Shown in pieces: positions 755 to 32,046 of a stretch of DNA of 55,581 nt (position 1 is the first letter of the stretch; every line of letters begins with the position of its first letter). A program made the translations under genes and the position numbers. The notes beneath the pieces were generated by a model. That model saw only the letters and a program-made list of their open reading frames with translations, did not search any database and was not told where the DNA came from. Origin of the DNA: a virus (taxonomy: Duplodnaviria; Caudoviricetes); IMG/VR virus record IMGVR_UViG_3300030419_003947, positions 1-55,581 of that record. One strand, given 5' to 3'.

Positions 755-3146
755 CGTTGATATCTCCTGTCGGGATATAAAATTCTGCATCCGCACGGGC
801 AAAACTTGTTGCACTTGTAGCGTTTCCCAATAACCACCATCTTCCATCACTTGACTTCCACCATCCCAATGAAAATACCGTTGGACTGCCAGAGCTTGCT
901 ACTGTTACTCTCATGGCGGCCCCAACGTGCATGTCAAGAGGGTAAGATAGACCAGAGGACGCTGGAGTTTCCCACGCAGGGGCAACGCCAGCACCACCAG
1001 AGGTTAGAACTTGTCCATCAGATCCGTAGTTAGCTCCACCTACTCCAAGTTCACCTTGGCTGGTAAACCTAAACTTCTCCGTAGCTGCTTCAGAGTGACC
1101 AGTATAGAATATCAAGTCAGTAGCATTTACTGAAGCAGTAAACGTATCTTGTGCTATCGCCTTGATAGCGGCAGCTATTGCCCTTGCATCAGTATCTTGA
1201 GCTTCCAAGGGTGCTTGAAACTCTATCTGCCCAAGGACGTCATTCGCTGCTACGGCTGTCTGTGCGGTAGCAAGTAGAAGCTTTCCAGAGCTACCAGTGG
1301 CATCAGCAGACGGACCTAATATTCGCAACTGATCGGCACTCTCATCCCACTCCATGTAGGCACCGGGAGAGTCACCAAAAAACTTTACGTCCTTCCCCGT
1401 GCCATCCACGCCAACGGTAACCGTTCCAGTAAAAGTTTTATCGCCAGTGAACGTCTGCGAACCACTAAGATGCGCCGTATCAGAATCAAGGTATGCCGAA
1501 GCTATTACGTCACCCTGCCACGTTCCGGTTCCAATAGTTCCTACGGTAACAAGATTTGCACAAACTGTTATTGCAGCTTGTGTCCCACCCGTTACTGTTG
1601 CAGCAGTACCAGAGGCGTTGCCCGTCACATTGCCCGTAAGAACCATTCCACTTTCAAGCGTTATACCGCCATCATTAATATTGCCAATATTTGTTTCATC
1701 AACATAAAAGCTCATCTTGCCATGATTGGCAGTGCCGCTAGCGGTTTTAGTAGTAAATCGAAGTTCTTCCAGAGTCTTATCGCTGCCACCATTGAGAGCT
1801 TGAATGACCAATGCTTCTGTTGCAGATGTTCCAATACTCAGTGATGTGTCTGCATTATTGTTATCATCAAATATTGTTAGATCGCCAGCGGTAACGACAA
1901 CCGTTCCAGTACCTGCATTTAAAGTGAGGTTGTTGTTCCCACTTGTGTCTATAGTAGCAGCAGCGTCAAAACTCAAGGTAGAAGCATCAGACTCTATTGT
2001 CCCGCCATCTAGCGTCAATACAGCACTTCCAGCATCCAAGGACAAAGCATTATTGCCACTGGTGTCTATGGTAGATGCGGCATCAAAGCTTAGTGTAGTG
2101 GCCTTAACTGCTAAGGCTTGCCCACTGTCACCGATAGAATCTGTATAAACATTTGACCATCGAACGCTGGTAGTCCCAAGGTCATCCGTGCTATCAGTAT
2201 CAGAAACAATATTTGCTCCGCTCTGGATACCCCCGGTATGAACGCTTTGTGCTGTGAAAGTACCTACCCCAACTACAGCCAGCGTGCTATCAAGCTTTAC
2301 TGCGCCATCGTCCACCCACAAAGAATAATTGCTTCCTCCCTCAGTGGGGGCATTTTTAACATATAGCGTGGCAGCATTAGTTACAGTGCCTGTTGCCGTA
2401 ATATTAGGCTCTTCTATGGCAACGCTGGCAACTAAGGCTGTAGTCCCAGAGGGAATCGTTTGCGCCCCGCCAGCGGTCACATGTAAGGCATACGTATCAT
2501 TGGTTGCAGTGTGAGAAGCAGCAGGAGGGCTTATCGTAACAAATTTATCATCTGCCCCAGCGGCACCGAAGGCAAAGGTGTCCAATCCAGCATCTACGAC
2601 AAAGCCATTCGCAATATTATTTGTCTCTATCCGAAAGTCTATATCGGCAGATCCATCATTGAATACAACCCTACCTGCCCCATCTGCCGGGGTTCCCGCT
2701 ACCATAAACTCAGCAGCAGACCCTGCGACTAAAGCCTTAAGCTTTATCTCTGAATCTTCATCGCCATTATCGGTGTCTGTCATAATGACTTCCAGCTCAC
2801 CGATTGTTGCTACATTCCCCTCATCGTCATCGGCATTAAATAAAAGCTCTACCCCATCTCCATCAGCAGGAGTTCCAGAAGCGGGGTCTATAGAAAAGAT
2901 GGCAGCAGTTCGCACTCCCCCTGCGGCAGCAGACGTATTCTCAAAGGTCTTCAAGCCCGTTATTGTTTGAGCCTGTCCCATGACTACTATACCATCAGAG
3001 TTGGTATAGTCTACGTTGTTTTCATCAATATTATTGCCTTCTACAAAAGTTCGTAGATTGGTTATCCATCCATTAAGAGGTGCAGCAATAATATCGCCAC
3101 CAGCAACTGGAAGCGTAGATGTAGTTGGAACAGTTACAGTAGCCAT
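738..3146 (-). CDS. Tail fibre protein (802 aa)
   Basis: Thr/Ala/Gly/Asp-rich with fibre-type motifs (QTITGLKTF, GSQTFTGDKTFTG, GSDGQVLTSGG); follows the nozzle gene. Confidence 0.75.
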   Translation of the reverse strand: MATVTVPTTSTLPVAGGDIIAAPLNGWITNLRTFVEGNNIDENNVDYTNSDGIVVMGQAQTITGLKTFENTSAAAGGVRTAAIFSIDPASGTPADGDGVELLFNADDDEGNVATIGELEVIMTDTDNGDEDSEIKLKALVAGSAAEFMVAGTPADGAGRVVFNDGSADIDFRIETNNIANGFVVDAGLDTFAFGAAGADDKFVTISPPAASHTATNDTYALHVTAGGAQTIPSGTTALVASVAIEEPNITATGTVTNAATLYVKNAPTEGGSNYSLWVDDGAVKLDSTLAVVGVGTFTAQSVHTGGIQSGANIVSDTDSTDDLGTTSVRWSNVYTDSIGDSGQALAVKATTLSFDAASTIDTSGNNALSLDAGSAVLTLDGGTIESDASTLSFDAAATIDTSGNNNLTLNAGTGTVVVTAGDLTIFDDNNNADTSLSIGTSATEALVIQALNGGSDKTLEELRFTTKTASGTANHGKMSFYVDETNIGNINDGGITLESGMVLTGNVTGNASGTAATVTGGTQAAITVCANLVTVGTIGTGTWQGDVIASAYLDSDTAHLSGSQTFTGDKTFTGTVTVGVDGTGKDVKFFGDSPGAYMEWDESADQLRILGPSADATGSSGKLLLATAQTAVAANDVLGQIEFQAPLEAQDTDARAIAAAIKAIAQDTFTASVNATDLIFYTGHSEAATEKFRFTSQGELGVGGANYGSDGQVLTSGGAGVAPAWETPASSGLSYPLDMHVGAAMRVTVASSGSPTVFSLGWWKSSDGRWWLLGNATSATSFARADAEFYIPTGDINDVPSS

Positions 3147-3154
3147 ATCTATCC

Positions 3155-4735
3155 TTATGCTGCTGTGTTAGCGGTGGTATCGTCTACGGTATACCATATT
3201 TGATATCCGACCAGACTTACAGTTGAAGATCCAGTTATTCTAAACCCAGCGGTCAATGCCGTTCTGTTGCATCCCCACATCTTTCTATCGTTACCACCAC
3301 CGGGATAGCGCAATGCAGTATCGTATTGATGTCCTTCGTCATACTGAAGATCAGTTCCAAGCTCCATAACTTTTGTTCTTGAACCACGAATGCCTTCATC
3401 TCGTATGAGCTGAAGCGTTATTGATTGAGGACCATCTCCTACATCTCTATAAAAGAGGACTACATTATGTATGGTTTTTTCTACGCCGGGAAATCCTAAA
3501 TCATTAGGAGCTGTCTCTATTTCCCACTGAATGGCAGTGCCATCATCATCTGTTCCAGTGTTCGACTTATACATATAGCCACTGCTATATCCACCCAATA
3601 AATCGTATTCTATTCCACTATCAAAATAATGACTAATATAGCTAAGTTTCGTTGTTTCATGCTTGTCTATGGATATATCCCCATTCTCCCAATCCCACGA
3701 CAAGATCAGATCATGTCCCGTAGTATTTGCTGAAGATGACATCAGCACACGAACTTGATGCTCTTTCTCTCTAATAGAGGAAACAGCATACTGAAGACGG
3801 TTCATATTAAAGGTATCTTGAAAATCTATATCCTTGGTTACAATGGAAAACTTGCCCTCTGGCGTTATTACATATCCACCTTCTCTGGCAATGCCAAAGA
3901 TAAATTCGGGCCTTGCAACCATAGACGTTTTAGATACTGGATGAAACCCTCTCAGGTTTCCAACTTCTTCATCTGGAACATATTCAATGTATCCAGAATT
4001 ATATTCCAATCTACCGGGGTATATGCCATCTGTCTTAGCTATCCACAGCTTGCCCCAATTGTCTACTCCTCCAACGATAGGCGCACTGTTTTCGCCACCA
4101 ATCTCATACCGACTATTTGATGGATAGCGAGTAATATCTCCTGTAAAGTCCTTCGTATTCACATCTGACCAAATAATGCGAGTAAGCTTTTTGCTTGAAG
4201 AAATCGTCGGCACTAAAACTACTAAGGCATTGTTATGCTCTATAAGTTGCTCTGCTGCTGTAAATGCTGTCGAATCCGAGGCAAACGTAAAAGCCACAGC
4301 ATTGCCCGTCCCTGCCCACTTAAAGCAATTGTCTTTTCCATTAGTTCCAACTATAGTGTCTTGAACAAAGTCGAGTGTAAAATATTCATCGTTGCTACCC
4401 GACAGAGACACGCTGCTTGTTATGTCAGACCTAGTAGACCCATCATCCGTATAGATCTTATCGGGAGTGCAAAATAGTCTTTTTGCTCCATGCGAAGCAA
4501 AGGTTTCTTCAATAAAGCCCATCATTGGCTCTGATGATGGGATTACAGTAGTATTGTACTTTTCATAGCCATTTCTGGACGCGGCTAGATTTTTCTCTGA
4601 GAAATTAATATTGGATATAACAATACAATTTTCTGGAGAAAGATCTGGATGAGGATACACCAAACGATCTTTTAGTCCTCTCAATCTATAAATAGGACTC
4701 TTTTCAAGAGAGGTTTTATTTAGAGGTTGAGCCAT
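3155..4735 (-). CDS. Putative tail nozzle / tail stabilisation protein (526 aa)
   Basis: Size, beta-rich sequence and position between adaptor and fibre, as in podoviruses. Confidence 0.6.
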   Translation of the reverse strand: MAQPLNKTSLEKSPIYRLRGLKDRLVYPHPDLSPENCIVISNINFSEKNLAASRNGYEKYNTTVIPSSEPMMGFIEETFASHGAKRLFCTPDKIYTDDGSTRSDITSSVSLSGSNDEYFTLDFVQDTIVGTNGKDNCFKWAGTGNAVAFTFASDSTAFTAAEQLIEHNNALVVLVPTISSSKKLTRIIWSDVNTKDFTGDITRYPSNSRYEIGGENSAPIVGGVDNWGKLWIAKTDGIYPGRLEYNSGYIEYVPDEEVGNLRGFHPVSKTSMVARPEFIFGIAREGGYVITPEGKFSIVTKDIDFQDTFNMNRLQYAVSSIREKEHQVRVLMSSSANTTGHDLILSWDWENGDISIDKHETTKLSYISHYFDSGIEYDLLGGYSSGYMYKSNTGTDDDGTAIQWEIETAPNDLGFPGVEKTIHNVVLFYRDVGDGPQSITLQLIRDEGIRGSRTKVMELGTDLQYDEGHQYDTALRYPGGGNDRKMWGCNRTALTAGFRITGSSTVSLVGYQIWYTVDDTTANTAA

Positions 4736-18577: not shown

Positions 18578-20191
18578 TTAGATATCGACCAAGGACCAAT
18601 AGTCCTCTTCGGGCGGCAGTTCCATAGGCTGGTGATTGCCAGCGATAGGGGCTTCGTTGAAGACATGCTTGCCTCGGCTACGCCGCTCTGAGCGACTGAT
18701 GATCTCATCGAAGGTGTAGTTGCGAGGGGTCCACTCCTCCCGTGGCGAAGGAGGGACTGCTCCCCCTCTAAGCTTCTCCAGTGCCAGACCCAGCAGGGAG
18801 AAACAGTCAACCTCATCATCATGCTTGAAGGTGGGGAACTTGATGAGGGTTTCCTGTACATCGGCTACCCAAAAACGATCTTTGGGAAAAAAGACCTTCC
18901 CCTCCTGCGCCCTACCCTGTATCGCTCTGGCACGTACCGTCTTGTCTTTGGAAGGGGTGAACTGCTCCCGAAAGCAGTATATACCTCTCTCCTTCATGCG
19001 CTGTGAGAGGAAGGGACCGACAGAGTTGAGGATCTGCCCCCGCTCCTCGCACCACATGACGGGCTTCCACTTCTTCATAAGGTCTATACAGGACTCTATC
19101 CACTCTACAGGCTTTGCCCTCTTCTTCCAAACATCGCATACATAGATGTTCTCTTCGGTGTCTACGGCAAATATTATGTGGACGGTGAAGTCAGACCCCC
19201 TGCGCTCAGAGGTGGCATAGTCGGAGCATCCATAAAACCGCAGTTCGGAGATGGGTGGCATGTCTACCAGTTCATTGCGCCCATAGGTCTTAAACCAATC
19301 CATCTGAAAGTAATCGCCATGATCTACGGTGGGAGACTGCTGGTAGAGTGCTTGGAACTCCCGGTTTTGAAGGACAGACTCTATCTCCTTCAGTGCCGTA
19401 GTATCGTACCATTCAGGCCATAGAGCCTCTCCCGGCATTCGCCCCAATGGATCGTCTTCCTTGGCGATAGCAGGGAGGTTGAGCGTTTCCCACGGTGGTA
19501 CATTGGGATCGTCTTCGGCTTGCTTAAGCAATCGCCCTGCAAGGTCATCATCATGCCATCGGGTCATAATGACTACGATAGAAGCATGAGGCATAAGGCG
19601 GGTAAAAGCGGTAGAGCGATACCAGTTCCATATGCGCTCTCTCTCCGCAAGGCTATCTGCTTCCTCCCGGTTCTTATGGGGATCATCAATGAGGAGGATC
19701 TTAGCACCACGACCCGTAGTGGCTGTGCCTATGCCTACGGCGAAGTATTCGCCCCTATGGCCTTCGATCTTCCACTTGTGGGCAGCAGCAGCATCTGTGG
19801 CAAGCTCTATCTCTGGGAAGATGCGCTTGTATTCTTCGGAGTCTACGATGTTACGTACATCGCGCCCAAAGTCGGAAGAGAGGTCTTGACCATACGAAGC
19901 AGTAATAATGGGATCATCGGGATGCCGCCCTATATACCAAGCAGGGAAACGGCGAGAAGCCAACTCGCTTTTGGTATGGCGCGGCGGCATGGTGATCATC
20001 AACCTGCGGCACTCACCTCGCTCTACACGCTCCAGCGCATCGGCAATAAGCTCATGGTGACGAGCTTGCTCAAAGTCGGGAAAGGTCGCCTTAGTAAAAG
20101 GCAGTAGTCTATTAGCTGCCTCCCGCCTCTTGAGGATAAGCTGTGCGGCTTTTACCGCATCAAGCTGTTTCTGCGAGTTGCTCAACCTCAC
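18578..20191 (-). CDS. terL: Terminase large subunit
   Basis: Walker A MPPRHTKS, Walker B ILLIDD, MTRWH, nuclease motifs SDYA and HDDEVD. Confidence 0.95.
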   Translation of the reverse strand: MRLSNSQKQLDAVKAAQLILKRREAANRLLPFTKATFPDFEQARHHELIADALERVERGECRRLMITMPPRHTKSELASRRFPAWYIGRHPDDPIITASYGQDLSSDFGRDVRNIVDSEEYKRIFPEIELATDAAAAHKWKIEGHRGEYFAVGIGTATTGRGAKILLIDDPHKNREEADSLAERERIWNWYRSTAFTRLMPHASIVVIMTRWHDDDLAGRLLKQAEDDPNVPPWETLNLPAIAKEDDPLGRMPGEALWPEWYDTTALKEIESVLQNREFQALYQQSPTVDHGDYFQMDWFKTYGRNELVDMPPISELRFYGCSDYATSERRGSDFTVHIIFAVDTEENIYVCDVWKKRAKPVEWIESCIDLMKKWKPVMWCEERGQILNSVGPFLSQRMKERGIYCFREQFTPSKDKTVRARAIQGRAQEGKVFFPKDRFWVADVQETLIKFPTFKHDDEVDCFSLLGLALEKLRGGAVPPSPREEWTPRNYTFDEIISRSERRSRGKHVFNEAPIAGNHQPMELPPEEDYWSLVDI

Positions 20192-21483: not shown

Positions 21484-21499
21484 TGTTCCACGTGAAACA
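21484..21499. promoter_or_regulatory. parS: parS centromere-like site TGTTCCACGTGAAACA
   Basis: Exact match to the bacterial chromosomal parS consensus TGTTNCACGTGAAACA, in AT-rich intergenic DNA. Confidence 0.85.
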
Positions 21500-21579
21500 T
21501 ACACAATTTTTTTATATAGGGTAATAGTGGGAGGAATATGGTCTGTATTGTGTAGGTGTATTAAATAATAAATTACATG

Positions 21580-21970
21580 ACAGCGGGGGAACGACGATTC
21601 GGCGGGGGCATTATGCAACGGGGGAATCGTCTGTCAGAATCGGCCCAAAATCGTCTGTCAGACAAGTCTGTTCGTCTGTTTTGGGCCGATCAGAGCCTAA
21701 ACAGTGCGCGTCATAACGTGTGCTGTTCAGTTCAAGATTCTTTGAACGCGTCTGATGGATGATATCCATGAGAATCTGAGCCGTAGGGAACTGAACTAAG
21801 CGGCTCACCCTGCTGTCCTACGGCACCCTGTTTTGGGCCGATTGCTGTCTGTTGTCGGTCCCGAAGGCACTCTGTTGCTGGTCTGGTCTGGCTTGTCAGG
21901 CTTTTCTGAATACCATTCAGCATATATGTAAGGCCATTCTCAGCCCTCTCTGAATACCATTCAGTATATA
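21580..21970. repeat. Non-coding cluster of short direct and inverted repeats (candidate packaging/terminus or origin region)
   Basis: AATCGTCTGTCAGA x2 (21625, 21649); CTGTTTTGGGCCGAT x2 (21676, 21828) with inverted ATCGGCCCAAAA (21639); TCTGAATACCATTCAG x2 (21905, 21949). Confidence 0.75.
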
Positions 21971-22493
21971 CATAGGGACTCGACTTGAGGAACTGGATGA
22001 GGTCTATGGATACCATCCATCACGCTTGAGTGTGCCAAATGGTATTTGGAGACTTGAGGTTTGGAGTGAGGCGATCCCCAAGGGGATCAACGTGTGTAAA
22101 GCAGAGCTTGGCGTGTGTGTAGTAGTCTGGGTTGGTCGATTTTGGCGATGCAGAATTTGCAGCCCTTTTTCCTACGGAAGAGTCGAACTATCGTAGGCGC
22201 GAATCATTACTTAGATGTGCGCGTTGGATGCAAAGTTTGCTGGCCGATTTCGCTGGTTTTGTGGGATTTGCTGCAAAATCTGCACTTTCGGAATGGCCTT
22301 GCGCGGAAGCAAAGCTTCTTATGCGTGTAATCGTAGGCATGTGGGACGTACGTGGCTCTAAAGAGCCTATTCGCGTGTTGGGACTTTGGCTAATGCGTGG
22401 GCGCGAAACATATAGTCCGTGCGCGTCGTTGGGCTTTGAGATCGGCCAAAAAATATTGCGCATTATGCGAGCGGGGATTTTTGTGGATCGGGG

Positions 22494-22510
22494 CTGGCAC
22501 GGCGATTGCA
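22494..22510 (+). promoter_or_regulatory. Sigma-54 (RpoN) -24/-12 promoter; predicted TSS ~22521
   Basis: CTGGCACGGCGATTGCA matches YTGGCACG-N4-TTGCW perfectly (GG-N10-GC); intergenic and pointing into the early arm. Confidence 0.82.
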
Positions 22511-22520
22511 ACGGTAAAAG

Positions 22521-23225
22521 CTGACGGCGGACCAGTTCAACGGTTCGATCGTTTTCATCACCCCCTCGATGGAGCAAACACAGCAGCGTCCAGCAGCGAG
22601 GGAGCAGGGCAGGTCAGAGGCACTGCGGTTCGCCGACAATAGATCGGCCATCGCAGAGAGCTTGATCGGGTCCGTAGACATAGCCAGCCGAGCCGGGGTT
22701 AAAGGCCCCAGAGCAGCCGCTCGTATGAAGCAAAGCTGGTGGGTCATCCGAGGGAAGACATGATCGGTTTGACTGTGAATATGGCAAGTCGCAGTGATCA
22801 GACTCAACAGTGAATGTGGTCAAGGCACGCCACCCCGTAGCAGTTCATTTAGACTGCCGTGATCGGTGGAGCAATAGTCTCCAAGCTACACGACTAAAGG
22901 TGTAGTGAACAACGCACAACTAAAGGCGCGTTGTTTAGGACGAGGCAAACGCCATTTCGGACCTCACCAGAGGTGGATTTGGATTTCTTGACTAACAGCT
23001 TAAAAAGCTGTGCTGTGATCTTGTCCTCTATCAAATACGCCCATAGCCGAGCGGATAACCGCTCGACAGCGCGATCAATTGCGTGTTATAACGCGCTATT
23101 GATCAAGAGGCTGTGGCAGTCCAGTAGTGGCTGTCGGGTGAACAAGTTCACCGCTGTGCTAAAGCCTTGGAATTCACCATCAAGCACAGCCTTTCACATA
23201 CAGTGACTCATTAGAAGTCACACCA
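22521..23225 (+). ncRNA. Candidate large multi-stem structured RNA (~700 nt), class unknown
   Basis: More than 15 hand-paired stems, several with G-U pairs favouring the + strand and nested multibranch junctions; no credible CDS; begins at the predicted sigma-54 TSS. Confidence 0.7.
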
Positions 23226-23242
23226 CGCAAAAGGAGCCTATC

Positions 23243-23860
23243 ATGGCAACTTCCAACGTCCCCCAGATCAACCTCAACCGTGCCGTATCGACCAAGTCGA
23301 TCAAGGGCAAGGTCAACCCCAACAACCCCATGACGAAAGGTCAGGCGCGCCTGCTCTACTTCGCGGTCAAAGAACTGACGGGGGCGCGGTTGGACCTGTT
23401 CAGCGTCAACACTCCGGCTCTGGTCCACAGCGACATCACTGAGTTGTGCGGTGTGCTGTCCAAGGACAGCAACGCGACTCAGGATGAGCAGCAGTTGGCC
23501 ATTGAGATTCTGGTCAGCGACCTCCGGGTTCCGGTGCTGGAGTCGGCACCCCGTCCTGTTTCCTCTGCTGGCCGCGCCGCCGCCGCTAAAGCCCCGAGCA
23601 TCCCGGCACCAGAGGCTGGCAAGGTCGGCATCGAACCGACAGAGCCGAAGAAGATGACCAGAGCGGAGTCGCTGGCCAAGGCCAGAGCCGCCAAGAAAGC
23701 CAAGGCAGAGGCGGCCAAGGCAGCCAAGGCGGCGGCACCAGCGGCACCGAGCTTGCCCGTGGTCACCCAGACTTCTGCCGCGCCGTCTGAAAAGACTGCG
23801 GATGAGAAGCTGGCACTGTTGGTCAGCGGCATTGCGGATCTGATCAAGGCCATAGCGTAG
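23243..23860 (+). CDS. 205-aa early protein with Ala/Lys-rich histone-H1-like segment
   Basis: AAGGAG RBS; strongly C/G-ending codons; AKARAAKKAKAEAAKAAKAAAP tract. Confidence 0.85.
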   Translation: MATSNVPQINLNRAVSTKSIKGKVNPNNPMTKGQARLLYFAVKELTGARLDLFSVNTPALVHSDITELCGVLSKDSNATQDEQQLAIEILVSDLRVPVLESAPRPVSSAGRAAAAKAPSIPAPEAGKVGIEPTEPKKMTRAESLAKARAAKKAKAEAAKAAKAAAPAAPSLPVVTQTSAAPSEKTADEKLALLVSGIADLIKAIA

Positions 23861-23909
23861 CATACCAGTACCTACCGTGTATGGCCTTATCAAGGCTGTG
23901 CATGGTAGG

Positions 23910-23962
23910 GGGGTCGGGCAGATCAGCACTGTCCCTGACGAAGACCATATGGTCGAAACCCC
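23910..23962 (+). ncRNA. Type III hammerhead ribozyme; predicted cleavage after C23915 (GUC)
   Basis: GGGGUC | stem I GGGCAG-AUCAGCA-CUGUCC | CUGACGA + extra A | stem II GACC-AUAU-GGUC | GAAA-CCCC. Core nucleotides and all three stems are present. Confidence 0.88.
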
Positions 23963-24032
23963 GTCAGCTTGCTCCATAACCATGCCGTATCGACATAGTC
24001 GATTCTTGGGGAGCAATGATTCCACCACTGTT

Positions 24033-24202
24033 CCAGCAGTTTGACAGAGTCCCTTAAGGGATCTACGGTTCTTGTCCCATCAGACTGCTGGGCTAATAAG
24101 CACACCACAACTGTTCCGATAGTCTGAGATATCGCGGCTTGACACGCCACACCCCATAGTGGGCATCCGAATGGAAGCGATTAATCAGATTATTGGAACA
24201 GT
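24033..24202 (+). ncRNA. Two long stem modules downstream of the hammerhead
   Basis: 12-bp stem 24033-24044/24080-24091; 18-bp stem 24110-24127/24185-24202 capped by a four-way junction. Confidence 0.65.
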
Positions 24203-24228
24203 ATTCACACCACAGAGGGGAAACTCTG

Positions 24229-24486
24229 ATGAATTACGCAATGGTATCACGCATCAATGCCTTTGGCAGAGGACAAGTTTGGGTCTATGTGGACCTGCAC
24301 ACCCACCGCATTGCTCTGCCGTATGTATTTGAGACACAGAAACAGGCAGTTGACACAATGGGATCGCCTGTTGTTGAGTATAATCCAGACTACTGGAACA
24401 GATTGAACATATATGAGTTGGCACCCAATCCTGTTACCACACCACCTATGTCTGAATCAGACATTTCTCAGAAAGGAGCAAAATGA
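24229..24486 (+). CDS. Hypothetical early protein (85 aa)
   Basis: GAGGGG RBS before the ATG at 24229. Confidence 0.65.
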   Translation: MNYAMVSRINAFGRGQVWVYVDLHTHRIALPYVFETQKQAVDTMGSPVVEYNPDYWNRLNIYELAPNPVTTPPMSESDISQKGAK

Positions 24487-31224: not shown

Positions 31225-32046
31225 ATGGCAAAGCAACCCGAAGGCGTAAGCAAGAGTGATATGTTCTATGTTGATAACCCCAACATGATCCAGATCGTGG
31301 AAGGGTTCAATCACCGTGAAGACTTTTCAGACTTAGACAATCTGGTAGAGTCTATCATTCAGCGTGGCATAGACACACCACTGCATGTCCGCAGGAACCG
31401 TGGTAACAAGGAGCAACCCTTTGCTTTAATCGCAGGAGAACGCAGACTAAGGGCTGTATCTCTGGCCCATGAGAATGGTGCCAGCCACATCCGCATCCCT
31501 GTCATCGTCAAGCAGGTAGATGACAAGCAAGCGTTTGAAGACAGCGTGGTAGAGAACATCGAACGCAAGAACTTGAACCATGTCGAAGAGTCTAATGCTG
31601 TAGTTCGCATGGGACAGTTTGGATACAGCGTCAAGGAGATTGCCAATAAGTTCAGCCGCTCTGATCAGTGGGTAAGAGAGCGTCAGGTATTGGCAGAGGC
31701 GCACAGCGAAGTGAAGAAGGCTGTGATCAAGCGCAAGATCCCTACCGATGTAGCAGTGGGACTGGTCAAGGCCACGGATCTTCCGAAGCAAGCGGGTGAG
31801 CTAAAGAAGATTCTTTCTAAAGCTCAAGGCTCCAAGAAAAGCACTCGCAAGGCAGCATCTCAGATCAGTGGTAAGAAGGTGCGTCCCGGTGTGCGAGATC
31901 TGGAGAAAGTTAGGACAGCAATCAGCACCGCAGAAGGACTGAGCGAAGAGAACAAAGACCTACTCCTTGCTATACTGGAGTATGCTCTGGGAGAACTTCC
32001 CGAAGCGGATCTTGGTCAGTACATTGATGTTCTCTGTGGCGCATAA
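31225..32046 (+). CDS. parB: ParB/Spo0J-family protein (273 aa)
   Basis: LIAGERRLRA arginine patch, ENIERKNLN, HTH GYSVKEIANKFSRSDQWV. Confidence 0.88.
   Translation: MAKQPEGVSKSDMFYVDNPNMIQIVEGFNHREDFSDLDNLVESIIQRGIDTPLHVRRNRGNKEQPFALIAGERRLRAVSLAHENGASHIRIPVIVKQVDDKQAFEDSVVENIERKNLNHVEESNAVVRMGQFGYSVKEIANKFSRSDQWVRERQVLAEAHSEVKKAVIKRKIPTDVAVGLVKATDLPKQAGELKKILSKAQGSKKSTRKAASQISGKKVRPGVRDLEKVRTAISTAEGLSEENKDLLLAILEYALGELPEADLGQYIDVLCGA

Follow-up and report, generated by a model that had tools for sequence, protein, structure and literature searches.

A large structured non-coding RNA element, possibly an operon leader, between divergent operons of a phage related to marine-type metagenome sequences

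The DNA analysed here, called the window throughout, is the whole of IMG/VR virus record IMGVR_UViG_3300030419_003947 (Duplodnaviria; Caudoviricetes), a complete genome of 55,581 nucleotides (nt) whose completeness is 100% by CheckV estimate. Leftward genes on the - strand run from ~21470 and include a small-terminase-like gene and the gene for the large terminase (TerL, 18578-20191). Rightward genes on the + strand begin at an ATG at 23243 and include those for ParB (31225-32046), a DUF932 protein, a helix-turn-helix protein and a RusA-like resolvase. The segment 22521-23225 therefore sits in a ~1.77-kb gap between divergent operons. An initial annotation, made from the letters alone, had described this segment as a giant non-coding RNA with many junctions and recurring UAAAG loops. 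Our comparison of related sequences confirms that it is a real, large, structured RNA element of the + strand that lacks coding capacity. Whether it is best regarded as the 5' leader of the rightward operon, a reading to which we give a probability of roughly one half, is considered below after the features of the locus.

Homologs were collected through neighbouring genes and with an invariant 30-nt pattern, and duplicates were removed. The distinct close sequences are those of the window and of contigs L088, L002, L007, L091 and L009, together with L006 and L005, in which only 5' parts are covered; L088 is 95% identical to the window and covers the 3' 730 nt only. These five to seven close homologs, all on marine viral or metagenome contigs, are 70-95% identical to the element. 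With about six close and four distant members, the family comprises ~10 sequences, several of which are closely related. Our main alignment (A4) has eight rows, six or seven of which cover most of 22521-23225, and is approximate in variable hairpins.

Wider searches added little to this family. When 22000-23300 was compared as DNA with 50,697 phage records, nothing matched, and exact or degenerate patterns of the invariant core gave no match in species-representative genomes. In viral contigs the same patterns, as well as an alignment-based scan for relatives of the protein of the first rightward gene, found only three contigs that were already known, and in metagenome contigs the patterns found six stretches, mostly duplicates. 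The 30-nt core pattern likewise retrieved only the same family from the viral and metagenome collections.

A comparison of the fold with shuffled sequence was proposed in the initial annotation as a check, and the RNA folds more stably. The + strand of 22521-23225 has a minimum free energy of -262 kcal/mol, compared with -226.4 +/- 5.5 kcal/mol for 20 dinucleotide shuffles, none of which is as low (z = -6.43); the fold of the - strand has z = -3.16. A consensus structure for the region was derived with RNAalifold, and one hairpin and one pseudoknot were added by hand. It contains 189 pairs, and 94.9% of the corresponding cells of alignment A4 are paired. At 30 of the 189 pairs both sides have changed in a compensatory manner, a number that none of 500 column shuffles reaches (13.5 +/- 2.6) and that drops to between 4 and 7 when partners are slid by one to three columns. 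Because the sequences are few and related, such counts overstate the number of independent events, yet the slid controls retain the same relatedness and fall far below 30.

All stems paired by hand in the initial annotation are present in the window at their coordinates, and most are conserved in homologs. The stem at 22623-22656 is paired in every sequence and has five compensatory pairs among 13, and compensatory changes also occur in the conserved stems at 22695-22709 and 22886-22905, in GCUGUGCU/AGCACAGC and in GUGACU/AGUCAC. The stems CGAGCGG/CCGCUCG and GAUCAAU/AUUGAUC are retained and barely vary. Three others, two of them closing stems, did not survive the comparison. GGUUUGA/UCAGACU pairs in the window only (one of six sequences), the closing stem AGGACGAG/CUUGUCCU is complete in one of six, and the closing stem CCAUAGCC/GGCUGUGG is complete in two of six, with three mismatches and no compensation in L009.

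No covarying helix of at least 6 bp that spans more than 150 columns was found inside the region or across position 22521, and so the RNA looks like a string of local domains rather than a globally closed fold. Its architecture includes one three-way junction, one four-way junction and one pseudoknot.

Strand assignment rests on departures at pairs that are mostly Watson-Crick, where G-U and A-C combinations were counted for the + strand and for the reverse strand folded by the same procedure. Within 22518-22793 there are 15 G-U and 3 A-C departures, and the reverse-strand fold has 3 and 18, which argues for the + strand. Counts for 22789-23240 are equivocal (10 and 13; reverse 18 and 11), because this stretch hardly varies among close homologs; its assignment to the + strand comes instead from the pseudoknot, the strand of the pairing with the Shine-Dalgarno (SD) sequence, and the fixed position relative to the start codon. 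The earlier view that G-U pairs favour the + strand accordingly holds for the first of the two stretches and is undecided by such counts in the second.

Both strands of the region admit open reading frames (ORFs), 64-130 codons in length. When these were compared with the homologs by tblastn, matches were fragmentary, switched frames and were equal on both strands, unlike those of the flanking proteins (a 205-amino-acid protein, the small-terminase-like protein and small leftward ORFs), which are conserved as proteins. Between the window and L002, L007, L091 and L009, the insertions and deletions whose lengths are divisible by three number 0 of 16, 2 of 26, 4 of 26 and 3 of 28, respectively. 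Hence 89-100% are not multiples of three and every reading frame is broken. Mismatches in the same four comparisons exhibit no codon periodicity and no third-position bias. As had been anticipated, homologs keep base pairs and not a reading frame.

The 3' part of the element is a pseudoknotted module of ~135 nt that abuts the SD sequence of the first rightward gene. In its H-type pseudoknot (23137-23178, + strand), GGUGAA at 23137-42 pairs with UUCACC (23173-78) within the P14 hairpin loop; the GGUGAA strand has an alternative partner, UUCACC at 23147-52, with which it would form a local hairpin. All six pseudoknot pairs are present in five of six close homologs, and two independent compensatory changes occur among them. 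In L002 the strand is GGUAAA and is compensated at the pseudoknot partner only (UUUACC), and in L007 it is GAUGAA and is compensated at both partners. P14 itself (23154-23189, + strand) carries a conserved 22-nt loop (AAAG.CUUGCAAU...CCAU), and six of its seven pairs are compensatory across 10 sequences. Downstream of P14, an anti-SD helix (23190-23236, + strand) pairs CCUUU at 23190-94 with the SD sequence AAAGG at 23230-34 and encloses hairpin P16 (23203-23221, + strand), which has three to five compensatory pairs. The anti-SD helix is 90% paired overall, and CCUUU/AAAGG is complete in five of six close sequences. In L009 the aligned anti-SD columns are unpaired, and CUCCU/AGGAG pairs 2 nt downstream instead.

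This module extends to more distant phages. A covariance model of 23108-23242 (R1), built without the pseudoknot, has full-length matches in L010 (E = 3e-5), L011 (2.6e-4) and L017 (5.9e-4), and weaker ones in L015 and L016 (0.15), where the E-values, like those of all covariance models built here, are rough. Each match ends at the start codon of a homolog of the 205-amino-acid gene, in phages whose TerL is 63-68% identical to that of the window. The P14 loop is conserved in L010, L011, L015 and L017, and the local partner at 23147-52 is absent from the distant group, in which the anti-SD helix is indistinct and includes non-standard pairs. Pseudoknot strands in distant sequences read GGACCA/UGGUCC, GGGUAG/CUACCC and GGGUCA/UGGCCC in a 10-row alignment, and GGGUCG/CGACCC in L015 after a one-column shift by eye. 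Counted as aligned, five of the six pseudoknot pairs are compensatory and 91.7% of cells are paired, and the helix was absent from the model that made this alignment. For the whole module, 23 of 32 pairs are compensatory, where shuffles give 9.6 +/- 2.0 and sliding the partners gives 4-10.

A second covariance model (R2), which represents the domain P3-P5 at 22604-22776, found no homolog among 24 distant loci. Since R1 matches distant phages and R2 does not, the 3' module is old and the ~580-nt 5' body is lineage-specific. Distant phages do keep a non-coding stretch of similar length before the same gene; that of L010 is similar in length to the window's and folds with z = -4.37. A pattern of the module also retrieved a new viral-contig stretch, L135, which lies antisense within a 563-codon ORF and gives a partial match of 12 bits; we regard it as a chance hit.

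Upstream of the element is a predicted sigma-54 (-24/-12) promoter, TGGCACGGCGATTGCA, at 22495-22510 on the + strand. It matches the sigma-54 consensus TGGCAC-N5-TTGCW, and with the usual spacing transcription would presumably start at ~22521. No other exact match occurs in the window; if one mismatch is tolerated, four matches are found where 2.7 are expected. The motif is exact in six of the seven distinct sequences that cover it (the window, L002, L007, L009, L091 and L006), and the seventh, L005, has an N inside it; variation is confined to the spacer. L010 has a 10-of-11 match in the same orientation, at a distance of 787 nt from the ATG of the homologous gene; the corresponding distance in the window is 735 nt. 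No such motif was found in L011, L015 or L017. Three conserved TGCA-N5-TGC palindromes, at 22149-22161, 22229-22240 and 22272-22284, lie 225-360 nt upstream of the sigma-54 motif and are candidate activator sites.

Two further contigs are recorded here. L023, from a still more distant phage with a TerL that is 51% identical, carries at 2068-2160 (- strand) an exact sigma-54 motif in the same orientation, pointing away from the terminase; two direct repeats of GGGACCAGTGAAT stand before this motif, and ~800 nt without a long ORF follow it. L017, with a TerL that is 63% identical, has at 3430-4600 (- strand) a non-coding stretch of ~1.2 kb before the homologous first gene, with many hairpins and repeated GCATGATG and GTGCGCAGGT motifs.

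The 5' body begins with hairpin P1 (22523-22553, + strand), 2 nt past the predicted start. It has nine counted pairs, four of them compensatory, and forms in all six covering homologs when these are folded singly. A terminator scan flagged P1 as an intrinsic attenuator, which was rejected as the U-run is not conserved. P2 (22563-22602, + strand) is a CCCUC/GAGGG hairpin with a window-specific insertion in its loop, and its stem varies too little for a covariation test. The long irregular hairpin P3 (22607-22674, + strand) contains the stem at 22623-22656, has nine compensatory pairs among 25, and adopts the same fold in all seven sequences folded singly. P4 (22683-22740, + strand) is the three-way junction, in which GCCAGC/GCUGGU closes hairpins at 22695-22709 and 22711-22722. 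It has four compensatory pairs, and five of seven single-sequence folds agree, with L002 and L007 differing within the junction. P5 (22742-22774, + strand) is a hairpin with a conserved 12-nt loop, GGGAAGACAUGA, and has the same fold in seven of seven sequences.

Next comes a variable region, P6 (22775-22821, + strand), where CUGUG, CACAG and UGUGG offer competing pairings and folds differ among homologs. L088 has a patch of ~20 nt here, at window positions 22795-22815, that is replaced by the sequence of other homologs, apparently through local exchange within a variable hairpin. P6 is followed by an invariant core of 48 nt (22822-22869, + strand), in which a hairpin GCAGUU-CAUUUA-GACUGC lies within CCACC/GGUGG. 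All six sequences agree throughout 22838-22869, and the core varies at two of its 5' positions, in L002 or L091. Near-invariance places the structure of this core beyond the reach of a covariation test.

P9 and P10 (22886-22935, + strand) are optional hairpins with ACUAAAG loops. They are present in three of six sequences (the window, L088 and L007), whereas L002 and L009 lack them and L091 has other sequence in their place; P9, whose loop differs in L007, contains one compensatory pair. The multi-hairpin domain P11 (22937-23027, + strand) has weak closure, in that its 8-bp closing stem is complete in the window only and a 4-bp GAGG/CCUC core is 79% paired. The four-way junction P12 (23038-23140, + strand) is formed by CGCCC/GGGUG, which closes 23048-23065, 23066-23114 and 23115-23135. 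Its topology is common to the window, L088, L002 and L009, that is, to four of the five sequences that have the junction. L007 keeps the inner helices with a closure of only 2 bp, and L091 is without the two inner hairpins. The closing helix has one compensatory pair (L002), and the inner helices barely vary.

The recurring UAAAG loops noted at the outset are in part a real feature of this RNA. CUAAAG loops are enriched, in that 3 of the 17 genomic + strand copies lie within the 722-nt element, and the leader of the distant L010 has three more hairpins with such loops. They are also dispensable, since the ACUAAAG hairpins are missing from two of six sequences and replaced in one.

The limits 22521-23225 did not prove to be those of conserved structure. 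Conserved, non-coding, covarying hairpins continue from 22494 back to ~21590. The structure to the left of 22510 has 134 pairs, 26 of which are compensatory, and departures on these pairs favour the + strand (58 G-U to 19 A-C). For the whole 21941-22550 block there are 64 G-U and 20 A-C departures, compared with 16 and 46 in the reverse-strand fold. The fold z of 21585-22494 is a modest -2.83. UAAAG-loop hairpins also occur upstream of the promoter, at 22365-22378 in the window and in L010. A hairpin motif, CGYGTYATAACRYG, is found both at 21707-21720 and at 23082-23095, inside longer inverted repeats, where 0.13 matches are expected by chance. Its two copies stand near both ends of the intergenic region, and the copy at 21700 has three G-U pairs on the + strand. 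This upstream stretch, 21590-22494, could represent a second RNA, or it could belong to a longer RNA as its 5' part.

The gene that the element precedes, at 23243-23860 on the + strand, encodes a protein of 205 amino acids and is conserved as a protein. The product is conserved in a small N-terminal part, its C-terminal half is rich in Ala and Lys and probably disordered, and it has 36 relatives, with 63-78% identity at homologous loci by tblastn. No Pfam or PHROG family was found for it, and the Atlas had no usable match. An AlphaFold model (mean predicted local distance difference test score, pLDDT, 50) is of low confidence and depicts a small, basic, largely disordered protein.

The RNA does not correspond to a class in Rfam. 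Scans that covered GOLLD, ROOL, OLE, HEARO, RNase P, tmRNA and intron models, as proposed in the initial annotation, gave no Rfam 15 match at gathering score in the whole window or in nine homologous loci. Even at E <= 10, only Ocean-VII was returned over 21800-23350, with 10.7 bits against a gathering score of 53.5. ARAGORN found no tRNA or tmRNA genes in the 55.6-kb genome; together with the Rfam result, this led us to reject a tRNA, tmRNA or intron identity.

Nearest in kind are GOLLD (RF01998) and ROOL (RF03087), which are likewise phage-borne, hundreds of nucleotides long, rich in covarying helices and provided with a pseudoknot. A conserved 3' part and a more variable 5' part are common to GOLLD and the element described here, to judge from the portion of PMC12286853 consulted. 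The element differs in that it matches neither model, its genome lacks tRNA genes, it consists of local domains behind a predicted sigma-54 promoter, and it is joined to the SD sequence of a protein gene. An RNA-only homo-oligomeric cage is a further characteristic of GOLLD and ROOL.

Pseudoknots at ribosome-binding sites serve as operators or riboswitches in the phage T4 gene 32 operator and in the SAM-II and preQ1 classes. The ~135-nt H-type pseudoknot before the SD sequence, with its conserved loop and anti-SD strand, resembles these, but it has no Rfam match, and upstream of it stand ~580 nt of additional conserved structure, well beyond what elements of this type possess. In early phage leaders, RNA elements such as HK022 put and lambda nut/boxB work on RNA polymerase or serve as binding sites for antiterminators. 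Here too there is a probable leader of an early-type operon just past a predicted promoter, with short hairpins bearing A-rich loops and a small, basic and largely disordered first gene product. The comparison with put and nut is one of description only; the present leader is ten times larger, and its UAAAG hairpins are dispensable in some relatives. We would file the RNA as a new family within the known kind of large structured phage RNAs or leaders.

As to its role, about even odds can be given to the proposal that the segment is a structured 5' leader of ~720 nt belonging to the rightward and presumably early operon. A leader is more likely than a free-standing RNA because the structure starts 2 nt past the predicted sigma-54 start and runs without a terminator into the SD sequence and ATG. 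No terminator-like site lies between 23000 and the ATG at 23243, the SD sequence directly follows the last helix of the element, and the anti-SD helix and pseudoknot stand directly before it. Large and structured therefore remains an apt description of the RNA, and a free-standing non-coding RNA is the less likely reading.

Such a leader could function as follows, with expression and each regulatory step read from the sequence. A host activator would fire the sigma-54 promoter and transcription would begin near 22521. The 5' hairpin may protect and stabilize the transcript, which would fold as a chain of conserved local domains. The pseudoknotted 3' module abutting the SD sequence would be the anciently conserved functional unit, and it most likely acts in cis as an operator of the first gene. 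Together with the anti-SD strand it could control translation initiation, with the SD sequence occluded or exposed, or mRNA stability, or both. A bound protein or ligand might favour the local hairpin over the pseudoknot, or the reverse, and thereby alter ribosome loading on the first gene. The lineage-specific body of ~580 nt, with its invariant core and optional A-rich-loop hairpins, probably recruits some factor of the phage or the host, for example RNA polymerase or a protein that binds RNA, if the resemblance to known phage leaders is a guide.

Several observations weigh against this proposal. The phage has no sigma-54 activator domain (PF00158), and use of the promoter would therefore need a host activator. 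The start near 22521, the transcript end and any processing are predictions from motifs and folds. Covariation rests on few independent events, and the anti-SD helix is not evident in the distant L011 and L015. Covarying, G-U-bearing hairpins upstream make it possible that a longer transcript reads through the promoter. Finally, a length of 720 nt far exceeds what known cis-regulatory leaders require and would accommodate a role in trans or as a scaffold.

Such a role would fit a processed or free-standing, trans-acting ornate RNA of the GOLLD and ROOL kind. Cut out of the leader region, it might be a scaffold, a decoy or a self-assembling particle and would not regulate the gene downstream. 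We think this unlikely, although the size and elaborateness of the RNA, its invariant 48-nt core, its phage origin and its modular, optional CUAAAG-loop hairpins, those of L010 included, are all in keeping with it, as is a universal 3' domain joined to a variable 5' domain, an organization that the consulted part of PMC12286853 attributes to GOLLD. That same part of the source places GOLLD and ROOL often near tRNA islands, yet this phage lacks tRNA genes. GOLLD, ROOL and OLE give no match even at E <= 10, no terminator precedes the gene, the most conserved module touches the SD sequence, and long-range closing helices are lacking.

A somewhat more doubtful proposal, which does not exclude the others, is that the segment is the 3' portion of a larger RNA of 1.3-1.65 kb that starts at ~21590, just past the parS region, so that the sigma-54 motif would be a second, internal promoter. 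It would account for the conservation and covarying hairpins back to ~21590, the strand bias of their G-U pairs, the CGYGTYATAACRYG motif shared by both halves and the UAAAG-loop hairpins upstream in the window and L010. Against it, no covarying helix joins the halves, the upstream fold is only modestly better than shuffles, and no convincing sigma-70 promoter candidate was found on the + strand near 21570. An exact, conserved sigma-54 motif with a hairpin right after its start is also hard to ascribe to chance.

More speculatively, and with similarly low confidence, the RNA may represent the first of a new class of giant regulatory RNAs in phages. On this view a sensor leader gated by sigma-54, 0.7 kb long and perhaps as much as 1.65 kb, would have a new riboswitch or a protein-operated switch as its 3' pseudoknot. 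Its 5' body, with the invariant 48-nt core and the modular CUAAAG hairpins, would either self-assemble or capture host machinery, be it the ribosome, RNA polymerase or an RNA chaperone. If so, a physiological signal of the host would be coupled, via a host enhancer-binding protein, to a developmental decision of the phage.

Very little weight goes to a DNA-level element, such as a replication origin, cruciforms, or hairpins of single-stranded DNA that serve replication or packaging. Its location between divergent operons and adjoining parS, with an AT-rich stretch and GTCTGT repeats in a phage that encodes ParB, would suit such an element, and the palindromes themselves are strand-symmetric. 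Tolerance of G-U pairs is strand-specific, however, and loop sequences are asymmetric; five pseudoknot pairs covary against the SD sequence, and in all relatives the orientation and the end are tied to the start codon. That this is an unrecognised protein-coding region can be dismissed almost outright, for the ORFs of 64-130 codons on both strands have the fragmentary, frame-switching matches and frame-breaking insertions and deletions described above.

Few large bacterial or phage RNAs are on record that have covariation support and no known function, and the present RNA is comparable to them in size and absent from Rfam. GOLLD, ROOL and OLE are the large covarying RNAs of this sort named in the part of PMC12286853 consulted. 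No description of this RNA was found in the literature searched, whose supplementary candidate lists lay outside the search. At the level of abstracts, no account of a host sigma-54 promoter in charge of a phage operon was found either; if true, such an operon would be rare and would imply control by a host signalling protein. The clear anatomy of the RNA, with its predicted start, 5' hairpin, junctions, core and pseudoknot at the ribosome-binding site, makes it testable by reporter fusions and chemical probing.

Some remaining observations concern the genome and the far edge of the intergenic region. The best TerL identity to cultured phages is 47.7%, and 40 loci in cellular genomes, all at most 47% identical, offer no clue to the host; related contigs come from marine-type metagenomes. 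A candidate hammerhead at 23900-24016 had no Rfam match at gathering score, nor one at E <= 10 over 23800-24250. Repeats of the GTCTGT type are numerous at 21629-21900. A 15-nt direct repeat, CTGTTTTGGGCCGAT, is present at 21676-21690 and 21828-21842, and the complement of its core is at 21643-21654. Either these repeats are iteron-like or they make up a long-range helix. TGTTCCACGTGAAACA (21484-21499), labelled a canonical parS in the initial annotation, adjoins the AT-rich stretch at 21500-21580 where the leftward operon has its edge, and L017 has a similar palindrome in the corresponding position.

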